Numbered from the stretch's first letter, positions 3,343-31,438 are shown. The stretch: 32,000 nucleotides of DNA from Candidatus Electrothrix sp. GW3-4 (GCF_037902255.1 NZ_CP147990.1:4320001-4352000); one strand, 5' to 3'. The notes: generated by a model not told the origin, from the letters alone. Translations and numbers: made by a program.

Positions 3343-3354
3343 GGACCGTTCTGT

Positions 3355-4644: not shown

Positions 4645-4669
4645 GATAGTGCTCCGGGTTGTCTTGGGG

Positions 4670-6062: not shown

Positions 6063-6074
6063 GTTCTTAGCCGC

Positions 6075-6374: not shown

Positions 6375-6488
6375 GATTGACGATAAGGCCGACGCGAGGA
6401 CTAAAGCGTCGTAAGAAGAGAAAGGCTGAGTAAAGAAAGTACTCAGCTCTTGGAACAGAAACTAAGCGGAACAACTCGTCGTTAGATT

Positions 6489-8447: not shown

Positions 8448-8512
8448 CGGGAAGTGGTCGTTTCTGAGCTGGAGCGTAGGAACGGAAAAAAGTTCTTTAA
8501 AGAGACGTTGGA

Positions 8513-10269: not shown

Positions 10270-10351
10270 AAGAAGTCTTTCCGTTCTGGACCTGAATGCA
10301 GAGAAACAATGAAACTCTTCCAGAGGTAATATTATCCTGTTCTGGAATGGA

Positions 10352-12499: not shown

Positions 12500-12581
12500 G
12501 AAAGAGAGAGCTCGTTGGGGCGTGAGCAGCTGATACCCTAGCAGGGGCCTTACCTTTGTCCCTCAGCTGGGGGGCAAATTC

Positions 12582-13475: not shown

Positions 13476-13900
13476 TGCGTTACTCCCTCTGTCTCTGCTT
13501 GGAGAGAAATATTGGTCAGGCCAGCTAACCGAACCCGATCTAAGACTTGAAAAAGCTCCTGATAGGAAACCGATTTATCGGCAAAGATCTGGACATCAGG
13601 GCCCTTCTCCATATCTTCTTTCTTCTTTCCTGCAAGCATCTGCTCAAGCTGGGGGAGTTCCACCGGCTTTTCATCGACAAAGAGCTTCAGGATGCCGTTC
13701 TGATTCTGGATGGTGACACTGACCGCCTCTGCCGTCTCCAGGCCCGCCGTGCCGGATTCCGGCAGGTCCACCTGTTGACCCCGGTGCACGGCCATGGACA
13801 GCATGGCATAGATAAAAAAGACCAGCAGAAGAAAGACAATGTCGATCAGGGGCAACATTTCCACCCGGGGGGAGGTCATGGTCCGGTTCGTCAGTTTCAT
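13472..13900 (-). CDS. exbD: ExbD/TolR biopolymer transport protein
   Basis: 142 aa. Has the N-terminal motif MLPLIDIVFLLLVFFI followed by a periplasmic domain. Translationally coupled to both exbB and tonB. Confidence 0.88.
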   Translation of the reverse strand: MKLTNRTMTSPRVEMLPLIDIVFLLLVFFIYAMLSMAVHRGQQVDLPESGTAGLETAEAVSVTIQNQNGILKLFVDEKPVELPQLEQMLAGKKKEDMEKGPDVQIFADKSVSYQELFQVLDRVRLAGLTNISLQAETEGVTQ

Positions 13901-14511
13901 TTGCTCCCCTCCGCCTGCATCCTTCGGTAGCCTACCTCCAGTCGGGTGGCATATTTCTCCATGAGATGGGTCGCATTTTCAATCCGGCTCTTAAAATAAT
14001 TATAGGGAAAGACAGTGAAAATAGAGATGGTCAGGCCAGTAGCTGTGGTAATCAGGGCCTGGGCAATACCACCGGTCACCAGTTTGGGATCAGCCATGCC
14101 CGTGCTGCCGAGCATCTTAAAGGAAGAGATAATCCCGATCACCGTGCCAAGGATCCCCAGGAGTGGAGCCACCGTAATCATGGTGTCCAGCACGGTCATA
14201 AACTGGGACATCTTTTTCAGCAGATGCTGGGCCTCCGCTTCCATCGCCTTACTCATATCATAGTCCCGGTGCAGGATGCCGACCTTGAGCACCCGGACGA
14301 TGGCATCATTACTGTCTGCTGTTTTCTCTTCAATTTGTTGCCAATCCATGCTTTCGGCAACGGTGAGCACTTCATCGCGCAGGGCCCGGTTGCGCCGACG
14401 GACCATCCCTGTCCAGAACAGGCTGCGTTCCAGGATGATGGTCAGGACAATGAGCGAACAGGCGAGCAGCGGCCACATGACTAGGCCGCCGTTATGTATA
14501 ATTTCCAACAT
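13897..14511 (-). CDS. exbB: MotA/TolQ/ExbB proton-channel protein
   Basis: 204 aa with three TM segments. Conserved C-terminal region: APLLGILGTVIGII...GGIAQALITTATGL. Confidence 0.88.
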   Translation of the reverse strand: MLEIIHNGGLVMWPLLACSLIVLTIILERSLFWTGMVRRRNRALRDEVLTVAESMDWQQIEEKTADSNDAIVRVLKVGILHRDYDMSKAMEAEAQHLLKKMSQFMTVLDTMITVAPLLGILGTVIGIISSFKMLGSTGMADPKLVTGGIAQALITTATGLTISIFTVFPYNYFKSRIENATHLMEKYATRLEVGYRRMQAEGSK

Positions 14512-14739
14512 AGTAACCTTTCATTATGCGTTGTTAGGGCGATGAAAAAATGACAGCAGGCATTCGGACTGACGACAACGAATCGTTAAGAGGAAACCGG
14601 TCGTTGTCATTTCCAGACAACCTAAACCATATTGGGCTTCCTGGACAATGGGGCGGAAGACTCATTTTTCCGGGAGGATTTCCCGGGCTCCGGGCAAGCT
14701 GCTGTCTCCAAAAAGGCTTTGAGATAAAGAGCAGCCTTG

Positions 14740-15600
14740 TTACCTCTTCAGGGGATTACGAAATTCCGGGTGGATCAGGCCAGCCATAATGGAGAGTGTT
14801 TCCGCAAAGGTAACTGGCGAGGGACTGCAGGCCAGGTCTGGGCTGACCACATGGACCTGCTGGTTTTGCACAGCGCTGAGCATGGGAAAGCCCTCCCATT
14901 TCTTTTTTTCCTCCTGGGCAATCCCGGTCTCACTGCCCATCATGGCAATGATGATGACCTCAGGATTCTTCACCAGCACCTTTTCATAGCTGACGGTGCC
15001 CCTCTTCTGTTCACCGATGACGTTGATTCCATTGCTCAGGGCGATAAAATCATGGGTAAAGGAGTTCTGCGCTGCCCCGAAAAGGGGGCGGGAGCCGATC
15101 TGGAGAAAGACCTTCTTCTGAGGAAGCGGAGCAACAGCGGTCCGTACTGCTGCCACCTTTTTCTCTGCTTCCCGAATGACCTCCTCAGCCCGCTCCTCCA
15201 GGCCGAGCAGCTGGCCGAGCCGGAGAAACTGCGCACAGATCTCGGCAAAGGAGGCAGATTGTGGAAACAGCTCCACCCGCAGGCCGAGTTCCTGAAACTT
15301 TTTGAGTTGGATGGGGGAGGTCAGGCCGGTGGCCAGGATCAGGTCCGGGCGCAGGCTGAGGATCTTTTCAATGGAGACCTGCATCACCGAACCGACCTTT
15401 TCTTTGGCCTTGGCAGCCTCTGGTCGGACGCAGTAGTTGGTATTGCCGACCAGGCGACCCTCCGCCCCAAGGAGGTAGACATTTTCCGTGTTGATAGGCC
15501 CCAGGGAGACGATGCGCTGGGGGAAATTGTTTGCCTCGGCCTGTTCAGGCACCGGCGCAAGGCAGAGCAGCAGGCTGAGAAAAAGAAGGTATCTGGTCAT
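14740..15600 (-). CDS. Periplasmic substrate-binding protein of the cobalamin/siderophore (BtuF-like, type III PBP) class
   Basis: ORF 14740..15708. I prefer the ATG at 15600, which gives a signal peptide MTRYLLFLSLLLCLAPVPEQAEA. RIVSLGPINTENVYLLGAEGRLVG is typical of the family. A cobalamin riboswitch lies directly upstream. Confidence 0.8.
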   Translation of the reverse strand: MTRYLLFLSLLLCLAPVPEQAEANNFPQRIVSLGPINTENVYLLGAEGRLVGNTNYCVRPEAAKAKEKVGSVMQVSIEKILSLRPDLILATGLTSPIQLKKFQELGLRVELFPQSASFAEICAQFLRLGQLLGLEERAEEVIREAEKKVAAVRTAVAPLPQKKVFLQIGSRPLFGAAQNSFTHDFIALSNGINVIGEQKRGTVSYEKVLVKNPEVIIIAMMGSETGIAQEEKKKWEGFPMLSAVQNQQVHVVSPDLACSPSPVTFAETLSIMAGLIHPEFRNPLKR

Positions 15601-15640
15601 GATTTTTATAAAAAGACGAGAAAGTTTACTGGCAGGCAGG

Positions 15641-15682
15641 CAAAAAAAATCCCCGAATCTGTATACGTATACAGATCCGGGG
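15641..15682 (-). terminator. Intrinsic terminator of the riboswitch expression platform
   Basis: The minus strand reads CCCCGGATCTGTATAC/GTATACAGATTCGGGG, a roughly 16-bp stem with one G-U pair. It is followed by A and then T8. It lies between the aptamer and the btuF-like start codon. Confidence 0.8.
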
Positions 15683-15791
15683 ATGCCCTGTTTAATCCAC
15701 GAATACACATCAGCCGAGCCTTCTTTACCATGAAGGCGGACTTTGCTCAGCAGCGCTGCGTCTCCGGTAGGCTTGAACTGACAGCGTTATT

Positions 15792-15948
15792 TTCAGACAG
15801 GTCTTCTGACTCCCGGATCATCCTTTGGTTGCGCCTTCCCGCATGAATCATGCAGTGGCATTGTGCAGCCTTTGTCCCCGGTTACAGCGGCGGGCCCGTC
15901 CCGGATTCGCACCGGGTTCCCTATTAAGCTCAGTGAGGAGCATCTGAA
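15792..15948 (-). promoter_or_regulatory. Cobalamin (B12) riboswitch aptamer
   Basis: The minus strand reads TTCAGA...AATAGGGAACCCGGTGCGAATCCGGGACGGGCCCGCCGCTGTAACCGGGGACAA...GCCACTG...GGGAAGGCG...GAGTCAGAAGACCTGTCTGAA. This contains the conserved GGGAA/GGTG-AATCC/CCCGC-CTGTAA core, GCCACTG, and the B12 box. The P1 stem is TTCAGA/TCTGAA. Confidence 0.9.
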
Positions 15949-16324
15949 GTATGGCAGGTAGATTACCTGAAACATAATACTACTGTCAAGAAGATGCGAA
16001 TAAATCTGTCCGGGTTCTGGAATGTATGCTCACCTGTTGATCCTGAGCATGCTGGGACATGTTACGAATGCGAGGTTTCCTGTGAAAGGGAAGCAGAAGG
16101 GTGGAAGGTGCGGGACAAGTCGGATTGTGGACAATCCCTCTTCGCAACTACCCCATAACGGCTGCGCGGTTTGAGTTTGGGGGTGTGATGCCGGGATGGG
16201 TACTTTTTTCCATTGTAACAGTGAATTTATCCTTGCTTTGTGAGTGGTTTTATGTTTATCGTCAGAATTATTGACGATTCCTGGGATATACTGAGAAACC
16301 TAGTACAGCGCGGCGCAAATAACC

Positions 16325-17080
16325 CTATGCTTTTAACGGCAACCCATTAAATGTCCATTTGTATGGTTTTGCCATTGTCGCATTAAAGTAATCAATAAAG
16401 TCGAGCAATTTGCTCCTGAGATCTTTTTTTGATGTAAAATTACCTCTTTTAATGATTTTCTTAGTAAGAATACCAAACCAAATTTCTACTTGATTGAGCC
16501 ATGAACAGTGTTTTGGGGTATAAACAAAGCGAATTGCATGGTCTTTCTTCCTGAGAAATTCGGCTCTGCTTTTCATTGATTTCAAAATGCCTTGTTTCCC
16601 TTTGACGCCTAAATTATCTTTTATTTCGCATAATTCACTGACCAACTTGACAAGTGATTCCGACTTATGAGTATTGAGCTGATCAGCCACAAAGACCCAC
16701 TCCCGAGTTTCCGGATCGCTTAATATAAGGCTTCGAATATGTTCGCAAAAATCATGTTCGTCCCGAGTGTCTCCTATGCTGGGAGAGACGACTTCACCGG
16801 TCACTACGTCAAAGTTTGCAATGAGCGAGAGTGTTCCGTGCCTGATGTACTCAAACTCAATCCGCTCCGGCTTTCCCGGCTCTATCTTTTTTGTCGGATT
16901 TTTCCTCTCAAGAGCCTGTATTCCGGTATTTTCATCAATACTGATGGTTCGCCTGCCGTTTATTACCGCCTTTCGGGGAGCTTCGTGGTATGTTTCACAG
17001 ACATCTTTCACTTCTAAAACAAACAGTTCTTCATTGTCATGATTGGGATTGAGCCAATACCGACTATGATGAGGTTTCAC
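16325..17080 (-). CDS. IS630-family transposase, DDE catalytic part (orfB)
   Basis: 251 aa. Contains ISIDENTGIQA (first D), VFVADQLNTHKS (second D) and HCSWLNQVEIWFGIL (E region), as in DDE_3/IS630-Tc1 transposases. This frame is open from the A-run and overlaps orfA. Confidence 0.8.
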   Translation of the reverse strand: MKPHHSRYWLNPNHDNEELFVLEVKDVCETYHEAPRKAVINGRRTISIDENTGIQALERKNPTKKIEPGKPERIEFEYIRHGTLSLIANFDVVTGEVVSPSIGDTRDEHDFCEHIRSLILSDPETREWVFVADQLNTHKSESLVKLVSELCEIKDNLGVKGKQGILKSMKSRAEFLRKKDHAIRFVYTPKHCSWLNQVEIWFGILTKKIIKRGNFTSKKDLRSKLLDFIDYFNATMAKPYKWTFNGLPLKA

Positions 17081-17621
17081 ATCGGTTTCTTTTTAAAAAT
17101 CGGCCCACTTGACGGTCCGAAATTCCAGAGGTTATCCCACGCTTATTGCATTCATCCGCCAATTCCCTACTGCTCCATTGAGAAATTGGACGACCGCTTT
17201 CTTCGGGATGCTCCAGTGCAACTGCTAAAATCTGACAATATTGTTCTGAAGAATAAGTTACTGGTGCTCCCGGACGCGGATTATCTTTTAAAACTTCTCG
17301 AATACTTTTTTCCAACTGATTGGCATTTTGGGGATCAGTCTCTATTTGCATTAAAGTATCTTGGTTGGCCAGCCACTTGTATCTCCAATGTTTAACCTTG
17401 TCGATACTGCAACTCATGACTTTTGCAATCTTTGAGTTCGGTTTTCCTTTCTCAATCTCCAATATTAAAGAAGCCCGACTTACCTCACGAAAATCAGCTG
17501 TTGATTGTCGAGCTATTTTTGACAAAATTTCTTTCTGTTGTTCGGAAACAGCAATTGATGGCGATTTGGGTGTAGGCATTTTCGAATCCATGTGTTGCAA
17601 GATTGTTGTCAATATACGCAA
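17064..17621 (-). CDS. IS630-family transposase, N-terminal HTH part (orfA)
   Basis: 185 aa with helix-turn-helix-like segments (SKIAKVMSCSIDKVKHWRYKW; RELADECNKRGITSGISDRQVGRFLK). The ORF ends inside the tta-aaa-aga A-run region. Confidence 0.8.
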   Translation of the reverse strand: MRILTTILQHMDSKMPTPKSPSIAVSEQQKEILSKIARQSTADFREVSRASLILEIEKGKPNSKIAKVMSCSIDKVKHWRYKWLANQDTLMQIETDPQNANQLEKSIREVLKDNPRPGAPVTYSSEQYCQILAVALEHPEESGRPISQWSSRELADECNKRGITSGISDRQVGRFLKRNRCETSS

Positions 17622-18049
17622 TCAAAAAGGATTCATGATACAATATTATTGTGCAAAAAAGCAGTGTTTAATTTACGCTGAGCTGTACTAGTGGTGGGTG
17701 TCACAGATTAGAGATTGAGTAAAGTGGACCCCATTGTCAAGACTATGCAGCACCCGAAGGGCTTGGCCTTGAGAGAATCGTGACGCATTGCTACAGGGGC
17801 TCACCAGCCAGCGGCAACTCCCGTTCCTCATAGTACACCTCAGCTGGACATCTGCCGCCTAAGCTACCTTGGCCTTCAGTTTACTGCTGTACTTTTTTCT
17901 TTTCATAGGTTCTCCCGTTGAAACACAGTGCAGAGGAGCGTTGGTAGCCGAAACAGGCCCGGGAGGAGTCGGCGGACTCCGGCCTCAAAGAAAAACAAGC
18001 AGTTGGCTCCGAAATCCAGAGCTAATATGGGTTAACCATGCTAGCATGA

Positions 18050-20187
<2,138 letters not shown>

Positions 20188-20195
<8 letters not shown>

Positions 20196-20535
20196 AAAAT
20201 CAGACAGCAAGCGTGCGCAAGAGGAGACAGTGTTTAGTCGGGAAGTTGGCACAAAGGCGGCACGCAAGCTCAAGGCGCAGCGTAACGCCACGCCGGGTGT
20301 CTGGTTTGGCCTGGGCATGATGGGACTGGTCGGCTGGTCGGTGGCGGTGCCGACGCTGCTCGGTGCAGCGCTTGGTCTCTGGTTGGATAACCAGCATCCG
20401 GGCCAGTATTCCTGGACACTGGCACTGTTAATGGCCGGACTTGTGATCGGCTGTTTCAATGCCTGGATTTGGATTGCCAAAGAAGACCGGGCCATGCGAG
20501 AGGAACAGGAGGATAAGGAGGATAATGATGACTGA
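20188..20535 (+). CDS. atpQ: N-ATPase accessory membrane protein AtpQ (ATPase_gene1 / AtpZ-AtpI-like)
   Basis: 115 aa with two TM segments (VWFGLGMMGLVGWSVAVPTLLGAALGLWLD; WTLALLMAGLVIGCFNAWIW). The ATG overlaps the atpC stop. Sits at the third position of the N-ATPase operon. Confidence 0.8.
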
Positions 20536-20890
20536 AACGTTAACCTTGATGCTGACATTGATGCCAGTCTGGGTGACCGGAGGAATGATCGGAGTAATGT
20601 TTTTCGGCGGACTCTGGTGGACAGTGCAAAAGGCGCTTTCATCCACACGACCGGCACTGTGGTTTTTCAGCAGCTGGCTGCTGCGGATGAGCCTTGCCCT
20701 GACCGGATTTCACCTTGTTGCGGGCGGCCATTGGCAACGGCTACTGATCTGTCTTCTGGGCTTTGTCATGGCACGCCCGGTCGTGACACGGCTGACCCAA
20801 TACAGCGTCCCTCCGAAACCCTGTATGGCGAGTCTCGGAGAGACTCGCGTACCTGATGCGGAGACACAGGAGGTCAAGGATGCGCCTTAG
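20525..20890 (+). CDS. atpR: N-ATPase accessory membrane protein AtpR
   Basis: ORF 20459..20890. I prefer the ATG at 20525 (MMTETLTLML...), which overlaps the atpQ stop. Hydrophobic protein with a membrane-embedded Arg (SWLLRMSLALTGF). Sits at the fourth position of the operon. Confidence 0.75.
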   Translation: MMTETLTLMLTLMPVWVTGGMIGVMFFGGLWWTVQKALSSTRPALWFFSSWLLRMSLALTGFHLVAGGHWQRLLICLLGFVMARPVVTRLTQYSVPPKPCMASLGETRVPDAETQEVKDAP

Positions 20891-21581
20891 CCCCGATGAA
20901 ATCATCTTCTGGCAACTGGGTTTTTTCAAACTCAACGCCACCATTGTCTTTACCTGGGGACTGATGCTCGTGCTGGCCGTCGGCGCCAGACTCATCACGC
21001 GCAAACTGTCCACCGATCTGGAACGTTCCCGCTGGCAGAACCTGCTGGAAATCGTGGTGACCGGCATTGAGCAACAAATCAAAGAGGTGGGCCTGACGCA
21101 GCCTCGGCAATATCTCGGCTTTTTGGGCACGCTTTTCCTGTTTGTCGCCGCAGCCAGCCTTGGCACCGTCATTCCGGGCTTTGAGCCGCCCACCGGTTCG
21201 CTCTCGACCACGACGGCACTTGCGCTGTGTGTGTTTGTGGCTGTGCCGCTGTTCGGCATTGCCGAGCAGGGGGTGAGCGGTTTCCTCTCATCCTATGTGC
21301 AGCCGACGTTCATCATGCTGCCCTTTAACATCATCAGCGAAATTTCACGGACACTGGCCCTGGCCGTCCGTTTGTTCGGCAACATGATGAGCGGGGCCAT
21401 GATTATCGCTATTCTGCTGACCATCACGCCGTTCCTCTTTCCCATTGTCATGACGCTGCTCGGCCTGCTCACCGGCATGGTGCAGGCCTACATTTTTAGC
21501 ATCCTGGCCGCAGTCTATATCGCGGCCGCCGCCCAAGTCCATAAGTCCAAACTTCAACCGCAGCAAACCGTTGCAGCATGA
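20880..21581 (+). CDS. atpB: N-type ATPase subunit a
   Basis: ORF 20856..21581. I prefer the ATG at 20880 (AGGAGG at 20868-20873). Contains the conserved stator Arg region LALAVRLFGNMMSG. Confidence 0.9.
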   Translation: MRLSPDEIIFWQLGFFKLNATIVFTWGLMLVLAVGARLITRKLSTDLERSRWQNLLEIVVTGIEQQIKEVGLTQPRQYLGFLGTLFLFVAAASLGTVIPGFEPPTGSLSTTTALALCVFVAVPLFGIAEQGVSGFLSSYVQPTFIMLPFNIISEISRTLALAVRLFGNMMSGAMIIAILLTITPFLFPIVMTLLGLLTGMVQAYIFSILAAVYIAAAAQVHKSKLQPQQTVAA

Positions 21582-21605
21582 ACGACAACAAACAAAGGAG
21601 ATACC

Positions 21606-21890
21606 ATGTACAGCAGCATGACTATTATCGCGGTGGCATCCATTGTCATCGCTGGCATTACCACCGGTTTCGGCTGTTTGGGGCCAGCACTAGCCGAAGG
21701 CAGGGCGGTCGCGACAGCCCTGAGTTCGCTGGCCCAGCAGCCCGATGCCTCCGCCACGATCACTCGGACCCTGTTTGTCGGTCTGGCAATGATCGAATCC
21801 ACGGCCATTTACTGCTTTGTGGTCTCGATGATTCTGATCTTCGCCAATCCGTTCTGGAATTACGTTATCGCCCAAGCTGCGGGACAGTAG
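21606..21890 (+). CDS. atpE: N-type ATPase c subunit (proteolipid) with a full Na+-type ligand set
   Basis: 94-aa helical hairpin with loop motif AQQPD. Helix 2 carries IESTAIY (E64, S65, T66, Y69). Helix 1 has E31 at the position of Q32 in the Ilyobacter tartaricus c subunit. Confidence 0.92.
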   Translation: MYSSMTIIAVASIVIAGITTGFGCLGPALAEGRAVATALSSLAQQPDASATITRTLFVGLAMIESTAIYCFVVSMILIFANPFWNYVIAQAAGQ

Positions 21891-21894
21891 ACCT

Positions 21895-22677
21895 ATGTTA
21901 ATCGATTGGTTCACCGTCGGTGCGCAGGCACTCAACTTTCTCATCCTGGTGTGGTTGATGCAGCGATTTCTGTACAAGCCCATTCTGCACGCCATTGACG
22001 CGCGGGAAGAGCGGATCGCCACGGAACTTGCGAACGCCGACGCGAAAAAGGCCGAGGCCCGACAGGAGCGCGACGAGTTCCGGGACAAGAATGAGGAAAT
22101 GGACCGACAGCGTGCCTCGCTGTTGAGCAAAGCAACAGAAGAGGCGCAGGCCGAACGAGAACGGCTCCTCGACGAAGCACGGCAGGCTGCGGCGGCCTTG
22201 CGTTTAACACAGCAGGAAGCCTTGAGAAACGAACAACAGAACCTGCACCAGGCACTCATCCGCCGGACACAGCAGGAAGTTTTTGCCATCGCACGTCAGA
22301 CGCTGACCGATCTCGCCGGGACGAGTTTGGAAGAACGTCTGGGCGAGGTGTTCACGCGCCGCTTACGCGAAATGGACGACCAGGCGAAAGCAGATCTCGC
22401 CGAGGCCCTGGAGACAACAGGGAAGCCCGCGCTCGTGCGCAGCGCAGGTGATCTGCCTGTCGAGCAGCGCGCAGCGATACAAAAGGCGCTCAACGAAACC
22501 TTCTCGGCCGACATCCACCTTCGCTTCCAGACCACGCCGGACCTGATCAGCGGTATTGAACTCACCGCAAATGGACAAAAGGTGGCCTGGAGCATTGCGG
22601 ATTATCTGGCATCGCTGGAAAAAGGTGTCGATGAACTTCTGAAAAAAAAGATAAACTATAAAGAGGGTCTAACATGA
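21895..22677 (+). CDS. atpF: N-type ATPase subunit b (long form with delta/OSCP-like C-terminal part)
   Basis: 260 aa. N-terminal TM segment, a long charged helix ([27 protein letters not shown]...), and a C-terminal [20 protein letters not shown] resembling the delta C-terminus. No separate atpH gene is present, as expected for N-ATPases. Confidence 0.88.
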
Positions 22678-22853
22678 AAGAAGGCACAATGGATTTTTGG
22701 CGTATCATCCTGTCTGTCATCATTCCGCCGGTAGGGGTCTTTTTACAGGTCGGTTTCGGTCTCCATTTCTGGATCAATATCCTCCTGACCTTATTGGGCT
22801 ATATTCCGGGGCTGATTCATGCGATCTGGATTATTACAAGAAAAACAAACTGA
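22674..22853 (+). CDS. Pmp3/YqaE (UPF0057) family small hydrophobic protein, not in the ORF track
   Basis: My own translation: [59 protein letters not shown] (59 aa). It closely matches E. coli YqaE as I recall it (...ILPPLGV...[18 protein letters not shown]). The ATG overlaps the atpF TGA (ATGA). Its stop lies 2 nt before the atpA ATG. Confidence 0.88.
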
Positions 22854-22855
22854 GG

Positions 22856-24436
22856 ATGAAGGAACCGATAAGTAGGGAAGCTGAGGGCCTCAAGAACGTT
22901 TTCGACAGCGCGTTTGCCGGAATAAGCCAGGTGCGGAAATCGTTCAAGCCGCAACTTATGCCCCGTGAGGTGGGCACAATCACCGGTATCGCCACCGGCA
23001 TCGCCAAGGTCTCCGGGCTGCCCGGCGTGGGCTTTGAGGAACTTGTGCAATTTCAAGGTGATGTACTCGGTATCGCGTTCAACGTGGATGCAGACGAAAT
23101 CGGCGTTGTCCTGCTCGGCGAATACTGGCGCCTCCACACGGGAGATGAAGTCCAACGCACGGGCCGGGTCATGGACGTGGCCGTGGGCGAAGGATTGCTG
23201 GGGCGCGTCATTGACCCGCTTGGTCGGCCGCTTGATGGCAATGGGCCGATGGCCGCAAGCGAGCGTCTGCCCATTGAACGCCCTGCCCCGCCCATCATGG
23301 ACCGCGCGCCCGTCACCGTGCCGCTCCAATCCGGTCTCAAAGTCATTGATGCGCTCATTCCCATCGGGCGCGGCCAACGCGAGTTGATCCTGGGTGACCG
23401 GCAGACGGGCAAGACCACCATTGCCATCGACACCATCCTCAACCAGCGCGACCATAATGTGCTGTGCGTGTATTGTGCCATCGGCCAGCGTGCGTCCGCT
23501 GTAGCCAAGGCCGTGGCCACCCTGCGGGAAAAGGGAGCCATGGAGTACACCGTCCTCGTCGTGACCGAGGGCAACGACCCGCCGGGCCTTACCTACATCG
23601 CGCCTTACGCTGCAACCAGTATTGCGGAGCATTTCATGGAAGCGGGTCGAGACGTGCTGATCGTGTACGACGATCTCACCCATCACGCCCGCGCCTACCG
23701 CGAACTCTCGCTCCTGCTGCGCCGTCCGCCCGGTCGCGAAGCCTTCCCCGGCGACATCTTTTATATCCACTCGCGGCTGCTGGAACGCGCCACACACCTG
23801 CGCGAGGAACTCGGTGGCGGCTCCCTCACCGCCCTGCCCATCATCGAGACCGAGGCGCAAAACATTTCCGCCTACATTCCGACCAACCTGATTTCCATCA
23901 CGGACGGGCAGATCTACCTCTCGCCGTCCCTGTTTGAATTGGGCGTGCTGCCGGCAGTCGATGTGGGCAAATCCGTTTCGCGCGTCGGCGGCAAGGCGCA
24001 ACGGGCGGCCTTCCGCGCGGTGGCGGGCGACCTCAAGCTCGCTTACGCGCAGTTCGAGGAACTTGAGACCTTTGCCCGCTTTGGTGCCCGCCTAGATCAA
24101 GATACCCGCAAGATTATCGAGCACGGACGGCAAATCCGCGCCTGCCTCAAACAGCCGGAATTTGCCCCGGTGGCCGTGCCCGCACAAATCGCCGTCCTGC
24201 TGGCCTTAACTGTGGAGCTGTTCGATGAGGTGGCGTTGGACCGGATGACGGACGCCGAGCAGGCCGTGCGCCAGGCAGCAGCGGAGATCCCATCGGAGGT
24301 GTGCAAGCGGTTGGAGACCGCCGAACAGTTGAGCGACGAAGATCGTGCAACGATCATTGCAATCGCCCGCAAATCACTGGAAGGGTTCCAGCCTGAGACG
24401 GAATCCGAAGCCCAACCAGAAGTAACTTTATCTTGA
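22856..24436 (+). CDS. atpA: N-type ATPase alpha subunit
   Basis: ORF 22697..24436. The first 53 codons of that ORF overlap the Pmp3 gene in another frame, so I prefer the ATG at 22856 ([16 protein letters not shown]...). The P-loop is GDRQTGKT. Confidence 0.92.
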
Positions 24437-24527
24437 AGATGGCAGAAAAGTTTTCTGAACTTTCAAAAGAGAACAGAAGGGGGAATAAACCATGTTGTTG
24501 AACACAATCAAAGTAGGAGGATACATC

Positions 24528-24890
24528 ATGATTTTGAATGAATTGGCAAATAAAGTGAAAAAATCCAGGATTTCGCGAGCAAAGGATATGCGACGAAACA
24601 GAACTAAAAATATCGCCATAGGGGTCGGCATCGGCTCCGTACTGGGGGTTGCGGCCGGAATCCTGTTCGCCCCTAAATCGGGCAAAGAAACCCGGCAAAT
24701 CATTGCCGATAAAACCAGCGAAACCGTGAAGGATTTTAAAAATAACGTGTCCGCAACCAAAGAAAAAATATCCGTTTCGGCTGCGGAAAAGGGCTCTCGT
24801 TTGCGCGAAGCCGGTCAGGAAGGCGTTGCGGTCGTAAAAGAATCTTTGAGAAAATTAGGTGAAGACAAGAAGAATGAATCCAATACATAA
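24528..24890 (+). CDS. YtxH domain-containing membrane-anchored protein
   Basis: ORF 24492..24890. I prefer the ATG at 24528 (AGGAGG at 24515-24520). Carries the hallmark GIGSVLGVAAGILFAPKSGKETRQII followed by a charged helical tail. Confidence 0.82.
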   Translation: MILNELANKVKKSRISRAKDMRRNRTKNIAIGVGIGSVLGVAAGILFAPKSGKETRQIIADKTSETVKDFKNNVSATKEKISVSAAEKGSRLREAGQEGVAVVKESLRKLGEDKKNESNT

Positions 24891-25052
24891 AGTTTGACAG
24901 CCAGTACCCCACCTTTTGAATAATCGACACTTTCAGCACTGTATCAGTACGGTAAGAATGCCGAAAAATGGGCTTGCAGGTCAACTTCGAGTGTCGATTA
25001 TATTTGGTTAGCTGCTTAATTACTTTTTAAAATGCAAAAAAAGGATGGCCTT

Positions 25053-25445
25053 ATGCAAGGATCAATTACGTTGAATGAATTGGGCATATTCATCATTTTT
25101 GCTTTAATTGTCGTGGCCGGTGGATACGCCATCGTGACGCTGAAAAACATTAATGCTTTGATTAAAGTGGCTTCAGCCACGCTGCAAAAAAACCAAGGCC
25201 ATTTAAATCAAATCATTCCCAATATTAATGAGATTTCAGAAAATACCGCAAAAATCAGCGAAGAGATCAAAAAAAGCGTTGATGAGGCGGGTGAGGCCGT
25301 CAGAACCATTTCTCATGAAACCGCCGATACAGTCTTGACGATCAATGAGACCGCTGATTATCTGGCAAAATATGCCCTGGTGATCGGCGAAATTGCCAAG
25401 ACGATTGTCAATATGTTTTCATCGAATGAGAAAGCTATGAAATAA
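25053..25445 (+). CDS. DUF948-like membrane-anchored coiled-coil protein
   Basis: ORF 25032..25445; the start is at 25032 or 25053. An N-terminal TM segment (LGIFIIFALIVVAGGYAIV) is followed by LKNINALIKVASATLQKNQGHLNQIIPNINEISENTAKISEEI. This architecture matches DUF948 proteins, which I recall pairing with YtxH genes in Firmicutes. Confidence 0.7.
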   Translation: MQGSITLNELGIFIIFALIVVAGGYAIVTLKNINALIKVASATLQKNQGHLNQIIPNINEISENTAKISEEIKKSVDEAGEAVRTISHETADTVLTINETADYLAKYALVIGEIAKTIVNMFSSNEKAMK

Positions 25446-25484
25446 CGCATAAGGCGCTGATACGCCTGAACACGAGGAAACGTC

Positions 25485-26384
25485 ATGAGCGAGACTACGG
25501 CGAGTCTGCGCCGAAAGATCAGTAGTGCTGGAGATCTCCAATCCGTCGTGCGCACGATGAAGTCCTTGGCCGCTTCGAGCATCGGACAATACGAGAAATC
25601 GTTGAGCGCGTTGGCCGACTACAATCGCACGGTGGAGCTGGGATTGAGTGTCTGTTTCCGTGGTGCCAGTTCGGCGGCATTTATGGTAACCGGAGAGACA
25701 CAACAAACGGATACGGGTGAGCTGAGCGCGGTCGTGTTCGGGTCCGACCAGGGATTGGTGGGCCAATTTAATGACGTGGTGGCCGATTACGCCATGAAGA
25801 CCCTCGCAACGCTGCCCGGCAGACCTCAGGTATGGGCTGTCGGCGAACGTGTTCATGCACGCTTGACGGACGCAGGCCTGCCTTCGGTCGGCCTCTTCGG
25901 GGTGCCGAATTCCGTCAAGGCCATCACCCCGCTCATCGACCGAATACTGGTGGAAAGCGAGGCAGGTCGCAGCTCGAACGAGGGTGTTGCACCGCTTTAC
26001 CTTTTCTACAACCGCCCAGGATCAGGCCCGGTTTATGCGCCGGTCAGTCAACGACTGCTGCCTTTGGATGAAAACTGGCGGCTCAAGCTCGCCGAGCTTC
26101 CCTGGCCGACGGGAAACTTGCCCGAAATCATGGGTGACAGCGGCACGACTCTGCGTGCACTCATCCGCGAATATCTTTTCGTTTCGCTCTTCCGGGCCTG
26201 CGCCGAATCCCTTGCAAGCGAGAACGCGAGCCGTCTGGCCGCCATGCAGCGTGCTGACAAAAATATCGACGAATTGCTGGAAGACCTCAATAGAACGTTC
26301 CATAGTTTGCGCCAGAGCGGCATCGACGAGGAATTGTTCGACGTCATCTCGGGCTTTGAATCGCTGAGTGTCGAGGAGCAATGA
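25485..26384 (+). CDS. atpG: N-type ATPase gamma subunit
   Basis: 299 aa. The N-terminal LRRKISSAGDLQSVVRTMKSLAASS and C-terminal ENASRLAAMQRADKNIDELLEDL...IDEELFDVISG helices are typical of gamma. Last gene of the atpDCQRBEFAG order. Confidence 0.9.
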   Translation: MSETTASLRRKISSAGDLQSVVRTMKSLAASSIGQYEKSLSALADYNRTVELGLSVCFRGASSAAFMVTGETQQTDTGELSAVVFGSDQGLVGQFNDVVADYAMKTLATLPGRPQVWAVGERVHARLTDAGLPSVGLFGVPNSVKAITPLIDRILVESEAGRSSNEGVAPLYLFYNRPGSGPVYAPVSQRLLPLDENWRLKLAELPWPTGNLPEIMGDSGTTLRALIREYLFVSLFRACAESLASENASRLAAMQRADKNIDELLEDLNRTFHSLRQSGIDEELFDVISGFESLSVEEQ

Positions 26385-26480
26385 TGGGGCGGGTATTGCC
26401 GTTATTAAAAGCTGTTCGGTGTATCAGTGGATCCGTGGAGGTTATGCACTTCTTATGCAAATTCAGAAAGGAGATAAAAA

Positions 26481-27224
26481 ATGTTACGCAGTGTAAAAGA
26501 AATTCACAATTATGTTCTACAGGCAGAAGATGGGGAGATCGGCCGTTGCAAAGATTTATTATTTGATGACCGTTTTTGGGCCGTTCGGTACATGGTGGCG
26601 GACACAGGCAAATGGTTGCCGGGACGAGAAGTACTTTTATCCCCCATTTCACTTGGCGAACCCAACTGGAGTTCCAGATTTTTTCCAGTCCGGTTAACGA
26701 AAAAACAGATAGAAAAAGCACCGGGACTTGATGAGGACGCACCGGTCAGCAGACAGCATGAAATCCTTTGGACCCAATATTACGGCTGGCCTTATTACTG
26801 GGGCGGCCCTTATGCATGGGGAGCCGCAGCTTACCCGGGAGCGTTGTATGATGAAAAATTACCGGAAAATAAGACAACTGAAGTGGATTCAGGAGATGAT
26901 CATCTCCGTTCTGTTCATGAAGTAACGGGTTACCACATTCAAGCGACAGATGATGAGGTTGGCCATATGGAAGACTTTATCGTAGATGATGAGACTTGGA
27001 TTATCCGGTATCTGGTAGTGGACACCCGCAATTGGTTGCCGGGGAAGAAGGTGCTGGTGCCGCCGACCTGGATAGGTTCGGTAGACTGGGCGGATAATAA
27101 GGTGAGTGTTGCTCTGACCAGAGAGCAGGTCAAGGACAGCCCGGAATATGATCCTTCGACTGTGGTGAACCGTGAGTATGAAGTACGGTTATACGATTTC
27201 TACGGTCGTCCGAAGTACTGGTAA
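26481..27224 (+). CDS. Tandem PRC-barrel domain protein
   Basis: Two internal copies of the PRC-barrel pattern. Copy 1: IHNYVLQAEDGEIGRCKDLLFDDRFWAVRYMVADTGKWLPGREVLLSP. Copy 2: VTGYHIQATDDEVGHMEDFIVDDETWIIRYLVVDTRNWLPGKKVLVPP. Confidence 0.8.
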   Translation: MLRSVKEIHNYVLQAEDGEIGRCKDLLFDDRFWAVRYMVADTGKWLPGREVLLSPISLGEPNWSSRFFPVRLTKKQIEKAPGLDEDAPVSRQHEILWTQYYGWPYYWGGPYAWGAAAYPGALYDEKLPENKTTEVDSGDDHLRSVHEVTGYHIQATDDEVGHMEDFIVDDETWIIRYLVVDTRNWLPGKKVLVPPTWIGSVDWADNKVSVALTREQVKDSPEYDPSTVVNREYEVRLYDFYGRPKYW

Positions 27225-27349
27225 TAACATGAATTCGACCTAATGAATCCAGTAATCATACGTCTTGTAATATTATTTCTCCGACGTGGTTCACGTTTTA
27301 TTCCCCCGGTATCTACTAACTTTAAACAAAACGGTAAAAGGAGCAAACA

Positions 27350-27640
27350 ATGAACGAAAAAGAACTGTATCAGCAGAAAAAACAGGCTCAGCTGGACAAA
27401 TGGAAAGCAGAAGTAGACAAGCTTAAGGCAAAGGCCTCCGGGACCAGCGCCGACGCACAATTGGAGTTAAAGAAGCAGATCAAAGCACTGCAAGGCAAGC
27501 TTGAGGAGGGAAAGACTAGGCTTGCTGAAATCGCGGACGCAAGTGAAAACGCGTGGGAGTCGAGCAAAGAGGGTGTGGAATCCGTATGGGATTCGATGAA
27601 GTCCGCTTTCAGTGACGCAGCCGCTAAGTTCAAGAAATAG
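27350..27640 (+). CDS. Small coiled-coil protein (96 aa), function unknown
   Basis: AAGGAG 6 nt upstream of the ATG. Charged heptad-like sequence (QAQLDKWKAEVDKLKAKA...LELKKQIKALQGKLEEGKTRLAEI) with no TM segment. Confidence 0.65.
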   Translation: MNEKELYQQKKQAQLDKWKAEVDKLKAKASGTSADAQLELKKQIKALQGKLEEGKTRLAEIADASENAWESSKEGVESVWDSMKSAFSDAAAKFKK

Positions 27641-27736
27641 AGTTACTGCCTAATAAGTCCACCGAACGATTGTTTATAAAAGTTTACGAAAGCAATCTGT
27701 AAAAATCGCACTATTATGGCGTTTCTTGGGTATCCG

Positions 27737-27801
27737 GGAATTGCTGGTTTGATGTCATCTCCGGTTTTGAAGCACTAAGTGAAAAGGAAAAATCACCATA
27801 A
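27737..27801 (+). pseudogene. Short diverged remnant of an atpG 3' end
   Basis: 27748-27781 aligns with atpG 26337-26370 with 7 mismatches in 34 nt. Five of them are synonymous third-position changes. The remnant encodes FDVISGFEALS versus FDVISGFESLS and ends at a TAA (27799-27801). Confidence 0.6.
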
Positions 27802-27854
27802 AAAAACATTAGAATCCGACAAATCACTTGCCAAAGAAAAGGGATAAAAGTGTC

Positions 27855-29951
27855 ATGTCAAATCGAATACTGATTATCACAGGCGACACCGCCGATGCCA
27901 GGGTGCTGCAGAATGCCCTCAATGAAGCAAAAGACAATCGGTTTATTATTGAACGCTTGACGAAGCTCTCTGACGGTCTCAAACGGATTCGTAAAGGCGG
28001 CGTTGATGCCATTATGGCGAATCTGTCCCTTTCCGACAGTCAGGGGATTAAAACATTTGACAAGCTTTTTACTGTGGCGCCTCACACGCCGATCATGGTT
28101 CTCAGCGCCCTGGATGACGAAATGCTTACAACAGAAGCTGTCCAAAGCGGCGCGCAAGGCTATCTGACGAAAGGTAACTTTGAAAGTTACCTGTTATCGC
28201 AGTCGCTGCATAACATGATCCAGCGTAAGGCAATTGAGGAAACGTTTTTTATAGAAAAAGCACGCGCGGAAATCACACTCAACTCGATCAGCGACGCGGT
28301 TATCAGCACAGATGTATCTGGTAATGTTGATTATTTGAACACGGCTGCGGAAACCATGACCGGTTGGTCAAGAGAAGAAGCGCAGGGACATCCCATCAGC
28401 GAAGTTATGCAAATTATCAATGGCGTGACGCGCAAGCCCGAAAGCAATCCGGTTTATTTTATATTGCAGCAAAACAAATCGAAGGCCCTAGCTGCTGGCA
28501 CGATCCTGATCCGACGCGACGGAAACGAAGCGGCCATTGAAGATTCAGCAGCACCGATTCATGATTGGGATGGAAAACTTGCGGGTGCCGTGATTGTGTT
28601 TCACGATATTACGGCCTCACAAGTGATGATTTTGAAAATGGCGCATCTGGCGCAACACGATTTCCTGACAGACTTGCCGAATCGTATGCTGCTGAGTGAC
28701 CGTATCGCTCAGTCGATTGCTTTAGCGAAACGGCAAGGTACTCAATTGGCTGTGTTGTACCTGGACCTGGATAATTTCAAGCACATCAATGATTCTCTCG
28801 GACACTTGGTCGGTGATAAATTACTGCAATCTGTTGCACAAAGTCTACAAGCGTGCGTTCGCAGTTCTGACACGGTAAGCCGGCAGGGTGGTGATGAATT
28901 CATAGTACTGGTGACGGAGAACAAATATGTGGAACATACTGCCAATACTGCCAACAGGATACTCACTGTGTTATCAGCACCGTATTCCATCGGCGAGCAG
29001 GATATTCATGTGACGACCAGCATCGGTATCAGTGTCTATCCTGAGGACGGCCAGGATTCGGAAACATTGATCAAGAAGGCAGATACCGCAATGTACCACG
29101 CCAAGGAAAAGGGACGCAATAACTACCAGTTTTTTAAAAGCGAGATGAATGTTCGCGCAGTTGAACGGCAATTCATCGAAGTCCAATTGAGGCGGGCACT
29201 GGATCAACAGATATTTATATTGCATTACCAGCCCAAGGTCAATCTGGATACAGGTGTTATTACCGGAGTCGAGGCATTGCTGCGTATGATAGAACCGGGT
29301 TCCGGTATGGTGCTGCCCGATCGTTTTGTGTCGATCGCTGAAGATTGCGGCCTGATTGTTCCTATCGGTCAATGGGTGCTGCGGGAAGCATGTTCGCAAA
29401 CCATGAGGTGGAAAAGAGCCGGGCTGAAAACAGTTCCTGTTGCAGTCAACATTTCTGCACTGGAATTACGGCAGAAGGATTTCGTTAAAGATGTTCTTGT
29501 TATCTTGAAAGAAACAGGCCTGGAGGCTGATTGTCTGCAACTGGAGATTACCGAAGATGTATTGATGAGTGATACCGAGTCCAACATTGAAACACTCAGG
29601 CAGTTTAAGAAGATGGGGGTTCAGCTGACGGTGGACAATTTTGGCACCGGTTATTCCAGCTTGAGTTATCTGAATAAATTTCCGATTGATATCCTTAAAA
29701 TCGACCGTTCATTCGTGCATGACATTGGCTCCATTAACGACAATGGTGCTATCGCCGGAGCGATCATTGCCATGGGCATCAGTCTCAAACAACAGGTGGT
29801 CGCCGAAGGTGTGGAGGAACGGGCGCAACTAACCTTCCTGAAAGAACGGAATTGCGAAGAGGGGCAAGGTTTCTTTTTCAGTCATCCCTTGTTTGCTGAG
29901 CAATTCGCAGTACTGTTGACAACAGGCATATCCGAAACGTGCTGCAGGTAA
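27855..29951 (+). CDS. Receiver-like domain / PAS / GGDEF / EAL signalling protein (c-di-GMP turnover)
   Basis: ORF 27828..29951 starts at a TTG; I prefer the ATG at 27855. The REC-like N-terminus has Asn56 where the phospho-acceptor Asp is expected. The PAS domain contains SISDAVISTDVSGNVDYLN. The GGDEF motif is intact (RQGGDEFIVL). The EAL motifs are intact (EALLRM, DNFGTGYSSL, KIDRSF, QGFFFSHP). Confidence 0.88.
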   Translation: MSNRILIITGDTADARVLQNALNEAKDNRFIIERLTKLSDGLKRIRKGGVDAIMANLSLSDSQGIKTFDKLFTVAPHTPIMVLSALDDEMLTTEAVQSGAQGYLTKGNFESYLLSQSLHNMIQRKAIEETFFIEKARAEITLNSISDAVISTDVSGNVDYLNTAAETMTGWSREEAQGHPISEVMQIINGVTRKPESNPVYFILQQNKSKALAAGTILIRRDGNEAAIEDSAAPIHDWDGKLAGAVIVFHDITASQVMILKMAHLAQHDFLTDLPNRMLLSDRIAQSIALAKRQGTQLAVLYLDLDNFKHINDSLGHLVGDKLLQSVAQSLQACVRSSDTVSRQGGDEFIVLVTENKYVEHTANTANRILTVLSAPYSIGEQDIHVTTSIGISVYPEDGQDSETLIKKADTAMYHAKEKGRNNYQFFKSEMNVRAVERQFIEVQLRRALDQQIFILHYQPKVNLDTGVITGVEALLRMIEPGSGMVLPDRFVSIAEDCGLIVPIGQWVLREACSQTMRWKRAGLKTVPVAVNISALELRQKDFVKDVLVILKETGLEADCLQLEITEDVLMSDTESNIETLRQFKKMGVQLTVDNFGTGYSSLSYLNKFPIDILKIDRSFVHDIGSINDNGAIAGAIIAMGISLKQQVVAEGVEERAQLTFLKERNCEEGQGFFFSHPLFAEQFAVLLTTGISETCCR

Positions 29952-29954
29952 GGT

Positions 29955-30169
29955 CGAATATCTTTTCGTCTTGCTCTTTCGGCTTTCGGGCGTGTGCCGA
30001 ATCCCTTGCAAGCGAAAACGCGAGCCGCCTGGCCGCCATGCAGCGTGCCGACAAAAACATCAACGAATTGCTGGAAGACCTCAATCGGACGTTCCATAGT
30101 TTGCACCAGAGCGGCATTGACGAGGAACTGTTCGACGTCATCTCGGGCTTTGAATCGCTGAGCGTATAG
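29955..30169 (+). pseudogene. Truncated second copy of the atpG 3' end (about the last 70 codons)
   Basis: 29996-30165 aligns without gaps to atpG 26202-26371 with 11 mismatches in 170 nt (my count). Homology starts at cgaatatctttt (29955 versus 26168) and has indels in its first roughly 40 nt. The fragment starts 3 nt after the stop of the GGDEF-EAL gene. It has no 5' part and no start context. Confidence 0.85.
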
Positions 30170-30246
30170 AGAGGATTCGTTTGTTGCTAAACAAGCAACA
30201 GAACTCAGCTATGCTGTCCGCTTTCGCGTGGTCTTCAAGTAGTTAT

Positions 30247-30300
30247 CCCCGGATCAATTGCAATACATTGATCCGGGGATGCCCTATTTTTCCACGAATA
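30247..30300. repeat. Hairpin plus conserved tail, second copy of the element that forms the riboswitch terminator region at 15651-15705
   Basis: The stem is CCCCGGATCAAT...ATTGATCCGGGG (30247-30278), followed by the tail ATGCCCTATTTTTCCACGAATA. Positions 30270-30300 match 15674-15705 at 29 of 32 aligned columns, including an exact 16-mer GATCCGGGGATGCCCT and an exact 10-mer TCCACGAATA. Confidence 0.85.
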
Positions 30301-30361
30301 ACTCGACGCATCTCTCCCTTGTCCACGGGGAGCGAAACGCCCCTCCAGGATTCACCTATGA

Positions 30362-31438
30362 CTATTTTGGCCTTCGGCTGCAGGCTGTAACCAGGAGCGC
30401 CATGCGAGCGTCTGCTGGCCCCGGACCGGGGTGAAAGGGGGCAAAATCACCCACACCGGCGACAACCAGCGCCATACTGGGAATCACAGTGACGGTCTCC
30501 TTATTCCAATGCCCATTGGCCTGAAAGCTGTCTTCTGGCAGGCTGGGCCAGATCCTCTTGCCCGTATTGAACCACCAGTTCATCCCGTAATTGCCAGGGC
30601 CAAAGCGGGACTGGTTGCCGCTGCCCCCATAGGTGCCGATCCCTAAATAATCCCGGGCTGGCTTTACAGAGATGGGCAGTGATTCCGGGACCTGATTGTT
30701 GAGGTAGCGTGCAAAGAAATCCTCACTCAAGAGTTGCTTGTCCTTCCATTTGCCTTTATTGAGCCAGAACCAGCCGATCCGGGCAAAATCCCTGGGAGAG
30801 GTATGGACAAACCAGCCATATCTTCCCACCTGTTCAAAGACATCGCCATCCTGAAATTGCAGGGTTCCGAGCCTGTTCTTCTCCATGAGGATCTGATTGG
30901 GATCAGCAGCAAAAACCCTGTTGAAGAGGGTGTTATGGTAGAGTTTGATCGCGTAATCATTATAGGCAAAGGCCTGGCCAGGAGACTCGCGCCGGGCATA
31001 GCCGCTGGTCATATTCGCCAGATGATGGAAGGTTATCTCTTGGTCTTTTCCCAGCAGCTCGGGCAGAAAGGGGTTGACCTTCCCGTTGATCTCCAGCTTA
31101 CCCTCCTGAGCTGCAAAGAGCAGGAGGGTGCTGAGCACTGGTTTGGTGGCTGAGGCCCACATGGTGCGGCCCCTTGGGTTGCCCCAGGTCTTGATCAGGT
31201 AGCCGTTTTTGATAATAACCCCAGAGCCTCCAACGGCCTGGGTAAATTGCTCCAGGGGCTCTGCATTCCCGCATAAAGACTCAGCAGGTCGCTGTTTCCA
31301 CTCCTTTCCCGGAAAAACGAGGTGTTTTGTCTCGTTTTTTGCTCTGGAGCGCTGCTCCGTCATGTCTTGGGAAAGTGGGGAACAAAGAGAGAGGAGACCG
31401 AGGTAGCAGAAAAGGAGCAGATACGGAGCGTTACGCAT
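30362..31438 (-). CDS. Secreted serine hydrolase of the beta-lactamase/transpeptidase-like family
   Basis: ORF 30362..31552. I prefer the ATG at 31438, which gives a signal peptide MRNAPYLLLFCYLGLLSLCSP. Has an SxxK motif (SATK) and a YxN motif (YHN). Confidence 0.75.
   Translation of the reverse strand: MRNAPYLLLFCYLGLLSLCSPLSQDMTEQRSRAKNETKHLVFPGKEWKQRPAESLCGNAEPLEQFTQAVGGSGVIIKNGYLIKTWGNPRGRTMWASATKPVLSTLLLFAAQEGKLEINGKVNPFLPELLGKDQEITFHHLANMTSGYARRESPGQAFAYNDYAIKLYHNTLFNRVFAADPNQILMEKNRLGTLQFQDGDVFEQVGRYGWFVHTSPRDFARIGWFWLNKGKWKDKQLLSEDFFARYLNNQVPESLPISVKPARDYLGIGTYGGSGNQSRFGPGNYGMNWWFNTGKRIWPSLPEDSFQANGHWNKETVTVIPSMALVVAGVGDFAPFHPGPGPADARMALLVTACSRRPK

Follow-up and report, generated by a model that had tools for sequence, protein, structure and literature searches.

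Displaced atpG tails behind an N-ATPase operon of Candidatus Electrothrix suggest stacking of accessory genes by recombination through conserved operon genes

The N-ATPase operon of the cable bacterium Candidatus Electrothrix sp. GW3-4 ends in an intact gamma-subunit gene, atpG. Behind this gene lie two further pieces of DNA that resemble its 3' end, termed remnant 1 and remnant 2, each preceded by accessory genes. The arrangement was analyzed within a stretch of 32,000 nucleotides (NZ_CP147990.1:4320001-4352000), hereafter the window, whose features are collected in Table 1. How did the end of one gene come to stand three times in a row on the same strand? With a probability of roughly 0.6, we read the remnants as displaced tails of earlier atpG alleles, which a series of recombination events would have left behind, with the conserved N-ATPase genes as the anchor. 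The anatomy itself is observed directly, and the three atpG 3' ends on the plus strand that an earlier note on this DNA had described are all confirmed.

Remnant 2 forms, with the atpG 3' end, the sole long direct repeat in the window. Blast aligns 29955-30165 to 26168-26371 with 89% identity over 211 columns (E=5e-64), a stretch of 34 nt is repeated exactly in the intact gene and the remnant, and the translated remnant matches positions 227-285 of the 285 in the Pfam gamma model. A 7-nt tandem duplication of CTTTCGG at 29976-29989 shifts the reading frame of its 5' part. The gap-free core (183 nt; 26189-26371 against 29983-30165) holds 14 mismatches, of which 12 are synonymous and the others are D-to-N and R-to-H replacements. 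The earlier note had counted 11 mismatches in 170 nt, nine of them synonymous; the counts needed slight revision, and the two replacements and the conclusion are unchanged. Given the observed mix of transitions and transversions, a synonymous fraction of 0.33 is expected, and the excess is significant (binomial P=7e-5). Remnant 2 falls in the Electrothrix atpG clade, where its identity of 90-92% over gap-free columns is at the level seen between species for the Electrothrix loci compared.

Remnant 1 is shorter. A profile of 160 atpG 3' ends, run with nhmmer over both strands of the whole window, finds it with E=1.1e-6, the next best match having E=3.4, and aligns it to profile positions 235-283, that is, up to the atpG stop; decayed homology possibly extends back to ~27737. 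The count of 7 mismatches in 34 nt given previously is accurate. The earlier note would have taken a lack of significance here as a refutation. The match to the resident gene is borderline taken alone (35/47 positions, 74%; blastn E=7e-4; tblastn of FDVISGFEALSEKEK against FDVISGFESLSVEEQ, E=0.04); the profile value is for the whole window. When all fetched loci (designated by L numbers) are searched with remnant 1, every match lies at the very 3' terminus of an atpG gene, and some 50 such genes are matched. The best matches are to L022, a metagenome-assembled genome of Desulfobacteraceae (40/46, 87%, E=6e-10), and to L048 (22/22). The encoded peptide, FDVISGFEALS followed by a K/E-rich tail, has the form common outside Electrothrix, where most gamma proteins likewise end in FEALS.

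These comparisons argue that neither remnant is a decayed local copy: remnant 1 because it is nearer to a foreign atpG (87%) than to the resident one (74%), and remnant 2 because changes in its core are mostly synonymous. That the remnants are of foreign and selected origin is seen directly in the alignments, and the proposal that they derive from functional, diverged gamma genes is thereby supported. Moreover, nhmmer alignments show that both remnants lie on the plus strand, are truncated on the left only and reach the natural atpG stop position. Thus, each looks like the 3' part of a former atpG to which the DNA that followed that gene is still attached, as fits newer DNA that is repeatedly inserted upstream of an older gene tail. 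The same left-only truncation bears out a link between cargo turnover and atpG ends, and makes recombination through the atpG 3' end a fair description of the locus.

The DNA that follows remnant 2 suggests what the operon once looked like. The non-coding stretch at 30176-30240 resembles the DNA behind atpG of L129, a distant locus, and occupies the same position relative to the atpG stop (blastn, 77% over 53 nt, E=4e-5; also seen with MAFFT, not recovered with blastn-short settings), which hints that remnant 2 marks the original operon end. Immediately beyond lies the only long-stem hairpin between atpA and the right flank, which is probably the original operon terminator. Because the L129-like flank and then the only strong terminator-like hairpin follow remnant 2, the data fit a model in which remnant 2 and its flank are the original end of the operon and the cargo was inserted between the last gene and the terminator.

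A hairpin element of ~60 nt that overlaps this putative terminator occurs in two same-orientation copies, at 15649-15710 and 30245-30306. Its sequence is ATCCCCGRATC...GATCCGGGGATGCCCTRTTT..TCCACGAATA, with conserved stems and differing loops. The copies bracket a 14.5-kb block that comprises the IS630 element, the N-ATPase operon, the cargo and remnant 2. The 16-nt core occurs twice, compared with 0.03 occurrences expected by chance, and the motif was found in no other fetched locus except a contig of the same strain. The paired hairpins could be terminators resembling repetitive extragenic palindromic (REP) sequences, or island borders.

The intact atpG appears to record exchange between alleles. 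Its product is 95% identical in amino acids to AtpG of Electrothrix locus L001 and 92% to that of L002, and no exact match to it is on record. Compared with L001, L002 and L090, the gene (25485-26384) is a mosaic of blocks with ~97% and 88-90% identity: nucleotides 1-455 are 97% identical to L001 and the remainder 89%, and nucleotides 1-227 are 90% identical to L002 and the remainder 97%. This pattern suggests recombination between Electrothrix N-ATPase alleles. Across phyla, AtpG proteins are 73-83% identical and the DNA of the atpG 3' end is 80-89% identical. The operon is therefore a good homology anchor, given this conservation, the 88-94% DNA identity of Electrothrix operons and the mosaic blocks.

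The N-ATPase region as a whole (19000-27259) is 88-95% identical in DNA to the Electrothrix-type loci L001, L081 and L090, and its YtxH/DUF948 module is mostly 95-99% identical across such loci, with one window of 92%. The adjoining serine hydrolase region is only 80-81% identical to other Electrothrix. Over whole genomes, the average nucleotide identity (ANI) of GW3-4 to other species is 77-82% (PMC11247825). Because the operon region exceeds the genome ANI, recent exchange is indicated, and in cable bacteria the last exchange of this region between species would postdate that of the remaining genome.

Footprints of this kind occur in other loci. The closest operons belong to other Electrothrix genomes (L001, L002 and L081), of which L001 and L002 carry unrelated genes 3' of atpG. 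In L001, intact atpA is followed by a 437-aa open reading frame (ORF) and then by a 107-nt remnant of the atpA 3' end; its YtxH/DUF948 module continues from this remnant rather than from the intact gene, with the same join as in atpA of the window. In L081 and L142, the 5' end of atpG is affected: a remnant of 57 or 105 nt stands right after atpA, followed by cargo that contains a baeRF-family gene and then by intact atpG. In these three loci, the remnant is the terminus of the gene adjacent to the insert and lies beyond the cargo from the intact copy. Additional footprints are an atpD 5' fragment 3.4 kb upstream of intact atpD in L054, a 141-nt repeat over the atpG end (and intergenic DNA) that flanks an SOD-containing insert in L073, and a 60-nt internal atpG fragment 5 kb downstream in L048. 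Recurrence at other operon gene ends is thus observed directly, and the search of other N-ATPase loci that the earlier note had proposed does yield displaced atpG fragments, from the 3' end or interior in L073 and L048 and from the 5' end in L081 and L142.

Insertions are concentrated at one place. The atpA-atpG junction is an insertion hot spot, where 24 of the 143 loci over which junction inserts were counted (17%) carry over 300 nt of additional sequence; each other junction has 0-5 such cases. Among Electrothrix, this junction contains nothing, YtxH plus DUF948, the 437-aa ORF, baeRF with a methyltransferase and an AI-2E transporter, or a 3.8-kb unannotated stretch. The inserts lie at 24437-25460 of the window, 5340-6830 of L001 and 4957-8985 of L081, and also occur in L088. 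The YtxH/DUF948 insert is present in L090 and L001 and absent from L002 and L089, where atpA abuts atpG.

L081 also carries short direct repeats of 40-42 nt with 80-81% identity. One pair (7610-7651 and 8881-8922) flanks the AI-2E transporter gene, and a second (3006-3045 and 3075-3114) is upstream of a Pmp3 gene between atpF and atpA. These repeats may be further insertion footprints.

The cargo genes behind atpG differ in how firmly they are tied to the operon. The PRC-barrel gene is a recurrent atpG neighbor rather than independent cargo that arrived recently, as had been supposed. DNA homology to L081, another Electrothrix, is continuous at 90.6% from atpG through this gene to 27259, after which L081 carries unrelated genes; a 92% orthologue lies directly 3' of atpG in L081-L084; and the gene also follows atpG in L011 and L142. 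PRC homologues with 80% identity (L173-L178) are in no case next to an N-ATPase. Homologues of the 96-aa protein occur near N-ATPase operons in L011, L012, L014, L032, L040, L046, L067, L101 and L112. The PRC-barrel and 96-aa genes form a recurring pair, which is adjacent without an N-ATPase in L173-L175. The closest relatives of the GGDEF-EAL protein outside GW3-4 are only 73-74% identical (the GW3-4 protein P0241 is 100% identical), and their contexts, L170 and L171, have no N-ATPase and no arrangement that could represent a donor. The combination of the 96-aa gene, remnant 1 and the GGDEF-EAL gene behind atpG is found in this strain only, among the loci fetched.

Weak nhmmer matches in L170 and L171 (E=0.003) lie at or near the junction of two called genes and were judged to be spurious.

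Upstream of the PRC-barrel gene, a 65-nt stretch (26402-26466, core GTGGAGGTTATGCACTTCTTATGCAAATTCAG) has a 78% copy in E. marina (L002, 7328-7392), where it is 6 kb downstream of atpG and its neighboring genes are different. This stretch may be a shared promoter or leader.

No enzyme that could move these genes was detected. Pfam searches find no integrase or recombinase domain in any cargo ORF of 26385-29954, as had been noted previously, nor a recombinase in cargo ORFs of at least 90 aa in L001, L048, L054, L073 and L142; precomputed Pfam labels likewise include none in the cargo of L081. Rfam detects nothing in 26300-30450, and a tRNA scan of the cargo and remnant region detects nothing. 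The only mobile-element gene in the window is the IS630 DDE transposase gene, 8 kb upstream, and its element is not implicated in the repeats.

From this arrangement we infer an order of events and a molecular route. In the original state, an Electrothrix-type atpG would have ended near 30173, with its native 3' flank and then the terminator (30244-30289) behind it. DNA carrying an atpG of another lineage together with the GGDEF-EAL gene would then have paired with the resident operon and been joined 215 nt before the resident atpG end, so that the old resident tail became remnant 2. In a second event, DNA carrying an Electrothrix-type atpG, the PRC-barrel gene and the 96-aa gene would have been joined within the atpG resident at that time, 49 nt short of its end, and the tail of this gene, from the other lineage, would have become remnant 1. 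A complete atpG would be restored at each event and the pump would stay functional, with new genes placed between the last operon gene and the terminator and the newest module nearest to atpG. On the conserved side, host homologous recombination would be used. The other side might be closed by an illegitimate join at the far end (homology-facilitated illegitimate recombination). Alternatively, a single crossover might occur with a circular intermediate that carries an atpG fragment and cargo, as in the displacement model for Rhs genes.

Several points weigh against this history. No fetched genome has atpG followed directly by this GGDEF-EAL gene, as a donor would, and none has an intact atpG of the remnant 2 type beside the serine hydrolase gene, as the ancestral state would; the serine hydrolase contexts in other Electrothrix (L086 and L087) have no N-ATPase, and no empty or ancestral site can be defined from them. 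A three-state history needs an operon 3' end that was temporarily of foreign type, which is plausible but not parsimonious. Only 3 nt separate the GGDEF-EAL stop codon from the left end of remnant 2, which is tight for a random illegitimate join. Footprints were found in only ~8 of the ~170 fetched loci, and the N-ATPase loci were scanned without a control operon, so enrichment is not demonstrated. Finally, sequence does not discriminate between the two candidate routes.

Among other explanations, the one that survives best, although we consider it unlikely, is that the cargo arrived by ordinary illegitimate insertion and deletion. In that case, atpG pieces were simply carried along in donor DNA, and atpG homology played no role. 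Such carriage is conceivable, since the PRC, 96-aa and GGDEF-EAL families are often near N-ATPase operons in other lineages, so that donor DNA could include an atpG end. Moreover, no duplication flanks the YtxH/DUF948 insert, which just takes the place of the atpA tail. However, the common strand of the two remnants, their intact stop ends and their left-only cuts are in the order that displacement would produce. In L001, L081 and L142, furthermore, the remnants are always termini of the insert-adjacent gene beyond the cargo, and random carriage would lack such regularity.

Some integrative elements use the 3' ends of genes as targets. In tRNA and tmRNA islands, and for e14 and phage 21 in icd, a replacement end borne by the element keeps the target intact, and a displaced partial copy with mostly synonymous differences is found at the far end. 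Such elements need an integrase and a fixed crossover core. The earlier note had drawn an analogy between the GW3-4 locus and elements that target tRNA 3' ends, and elements of this kind could have used the atpG 3' end, with a replacement end in attP and an integrase that was lost or acts in trans. The proximal copy restores the target, the displaced copy is at the far end and the two are direct repeats, all as this would predict. Nevertheless, we regard it as improbable, and the analogy fails on several counts. Neither the GW3-4 cargo nor the cargo ORFs scanned in other loci encode a recombinase, and no fixed core was found. Independent insertions do not share repeat boundaries at the atpG 3' end: the two repeats of the window measure 215 and 49 nt, that of L073 measures 141 nt and that of L048 60 nt. 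Footprints are also found at atpA 3', atpG 5' and atpD 5' ends. The repeats are 74-92% identical and have no obvious identical core beyond the 34-nt stretch of conserved coding sequence. Integron cassettes receive no support either: Pfam-scanned ORFs of 1-16300 and the cargo contain no integrase, IntI-type enzymes included, attC sites not having been searched for specifically.

The atpG 3' end might also have been duplicated locally in tandem, with cargo then inserted and the spare copy decaying; this had been named as a finding that would overturn the reading. The frameshifting duplication and altered tail of remnant 2 do look like decay. However, free decay is at odds with the 12 synonymous changes among 14. 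Even if one copy were under selection, a synonymous fraction of only ~0.4 would be expected by our estimate (P about 6e-4). Because remnant 1 is also closer to foreign genes than to the resident one, this explanation is very improbable.

An assembly artefact that joined strain variants is hardly credible: although short-read contigs break inside the repeat, the GW3-4 genome, that of Ca. E. antwerpensis, was closed with Illumina data and Nanopore reads of at least 4 kb from a clonal enrichment (PMC11247825), and both junctions of remnant 2 recur in separate short-read contigs, which come from two runs. PRC to remnant 2 is spanned by Logan contigs L168 and L169, and contig L085 continues from remnant 2 into the serine hydrolase gene with 99.9% identity over 1868 nt. 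The exact repeat of 34 nt is where L085 stops and where, judged by position, L168 both starts and stops.

Serial displacement through atpG, the reading we prefer, resembles two systems already described. For Rhs genes, C-terminal displacement was proposed to occur by homologous recombination with a circular intermediate of a core fragment and cargo (Jackson et al. 2009, PMC2935791). In both cases, an intact gene is followed by same-orientation 3' fragments that have a conserved piece of variable length and their own downstream genes, the fragments were acquired laterally rather than having diverged locally, and no dedicated recombinase is present. In Rhs systems, however, the displaced part is a variable toxin tip with its immunity gene, and protein diversity is the point. 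Here, gamma remains unchanged, the variable part consists of separate stress and signaling genes behind an ATPase operon, and there are only two fragments.

In Vibrio cholerae, effector-immunity modules of its type VI secretion system (T6SS) undergo sequential displacement by homology-facilitated illegitimate recombination, and the authors noted a resemblance to integrons and found no integrase (Kirchberger et al. 2017, PMC5361080). As appears to be the case here, a conserved upstream region serves as the homology anchor, the other end is joined illegitimately and older modules are pushed downstream with 3' remnants. The systems differ in that selection keeps orphan immunity genes in T6SS arrays, whereas nothing suggests that the remnants here are useful. 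The anchors also differ, being a species-level secretion cluster in one case and a laterally mobile ion-pump operon conserved across phyla in the other. The GW3-4 locus does share with displacement arrays its same-strand, 5'-cut fragments that run to the gene end, and their origin from diverged, laterally acquired alleles. Its cargo comprises a PRC-barrel protein, a 96-aa protein and a response-regulator-PAS-GGDEF-EAL protein, and includes no toxin or immunity gene. The locus therefore does not belong with polymorphic toxins, though it seems to work alike.

The N-ATPase operon was described as laterally mobile, including on plasmids, by Dibrova et al. (2010, PMC2881411), who stress a strict gene order; a term search of that paper does not find the word "inserted." In contrast to this strict order, 17% of the sampled loci have atpA-atpG inserts, and displaced gene-end fragments are present here. 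Plasmid-borne N-ATPase operons do exist among our comparisons, but they are only distantly related (at most 66%) and, in the one record examined, lack the GW3-4 cargo. These findings suggest that N-ATPase operons, described as strictly ordered units that move whole, also acquire accessory genes and stack them up, through ordinary recombination of an incoming with a resident operon copy.

A broader and far more tentative idea, one that we doubt more than we believe, is that the termini of N-ATPase genes act as portable homology handles. An operon could then take up DNA that lies beside another, no recombinase being needed, so that stress and dormancy genes around the pump would form a common pool, open to exchange, in unrelated phyla, and direct repeats could excise circles that spread cargo. 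Members of this pool would be PRC-barrel, YtxH, DUF948, baeRF, hibernation factor, SOD, DUF2254 and GGDEF-EAL genes. If general, the process would amount to recombinase-free, cross-lineage gene capture that rides on an unusually conserved operon, and would link the pump to a recurrent set of stress-response genes.

Table 1. Features of the window, with positions counted from its first nucleotide
Feature	Position	Strand	Basis or remark
IS630-family element, DDE_3 transposase (PF13358)	16300..17691	-	35-nt imperfect terminal inverted repeats; just upstream of operon
N-ATPase operon atpD-C-Q-R-B-E-F-A-(insert)-G	18053..26384	+	Pfam; 58% G+C
Low-GC (42%) insert between atpA and atpG	24437..25460	+	Replaces usual atpA C-terminal tail
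YtxH-like gene	24492-24890	+	Within atpA-atpG insert
DUF948 gene	25032-25445	+	Within atpA-atpG insert
Intact atpG, gamma subunit, 299 aa	25485..26384	+	Pfam PF00231, E=2e-51, full length
atpG 3' segment repeated downstream	26168..26384	+	Self-alignment
PRC-barrel protein, 247 aa	26481..27224	+	Pfam PF05239
96-aa protein	27350..27640	+	No Pfam match; "coiled-coil" label from the earlier note only
Remnant 1, last 49 nt of former non-Electrothrix-type atpG	27747..27795	+	nhmmer; stop TGA changed to TCA
Response-regulator-PAS-GGDEF-EAL protein, 698 aa	27855..29951	+	Pfam; 47-48% G+C
Remnant 2, last ~215 nt of former Electrothrix-type atpG	29955..30173	+	atpG 3' profile, E=2e-67
Non-coding stretch after remnant 2	30176..30240	+	Resembles DNA directly 3' of atpG in distant L129
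Terminator-like hairpin, 15-pair stem	30244..30289	+	Fold -28 kcal/mol, z=-7.2; related copy at 15649-15693

The operon itself is a complete N-ATPase operon. Its genes encode, on the plus strand, the subunits beta, epsilon, AtpQ, AtpR, a, c, b, alpha and gamma, with Pfam matches to ATP-synt_ab, DE_N, ATPase_gene1, AtpR, ATP-synt_A, ATP-synt_B and gamma. AtpR (PF12966) and PF09527 are present, there is no delta subunit, and the D-C-Q-R-B-E-F-A-G order is broken solely by the YtxH/DUF948 insert. The order, together with AtpR and AtpQ, is as given by Dibrova et al. 2010 (PMC2881411). The putative c subunit (21578-21901) has no Pfam match at E<=0.01 and was assigned by position and by its L081 orthologue. 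For atpD, position 18053 is that of the first ATG in the ORF; the start used (~18284) was picked by eye.

Base composition varies among the segments, with 58% G+C in the operon, 47% in the 3.6-kb cargo behind atpG, 42% in the atpA-atpG insert and ~53% in the chromosomal flanks. The left 16 kb of the window contains housekeeping genes, among them glyQ and metG. At 8513-10269, flanked by metG and a gene of the alpha-amylase family, genes for an AAA_15/AAA_21 ATPase and a DUF3226 protein form a pair that looks like a small, two-gene insert of the defense type.

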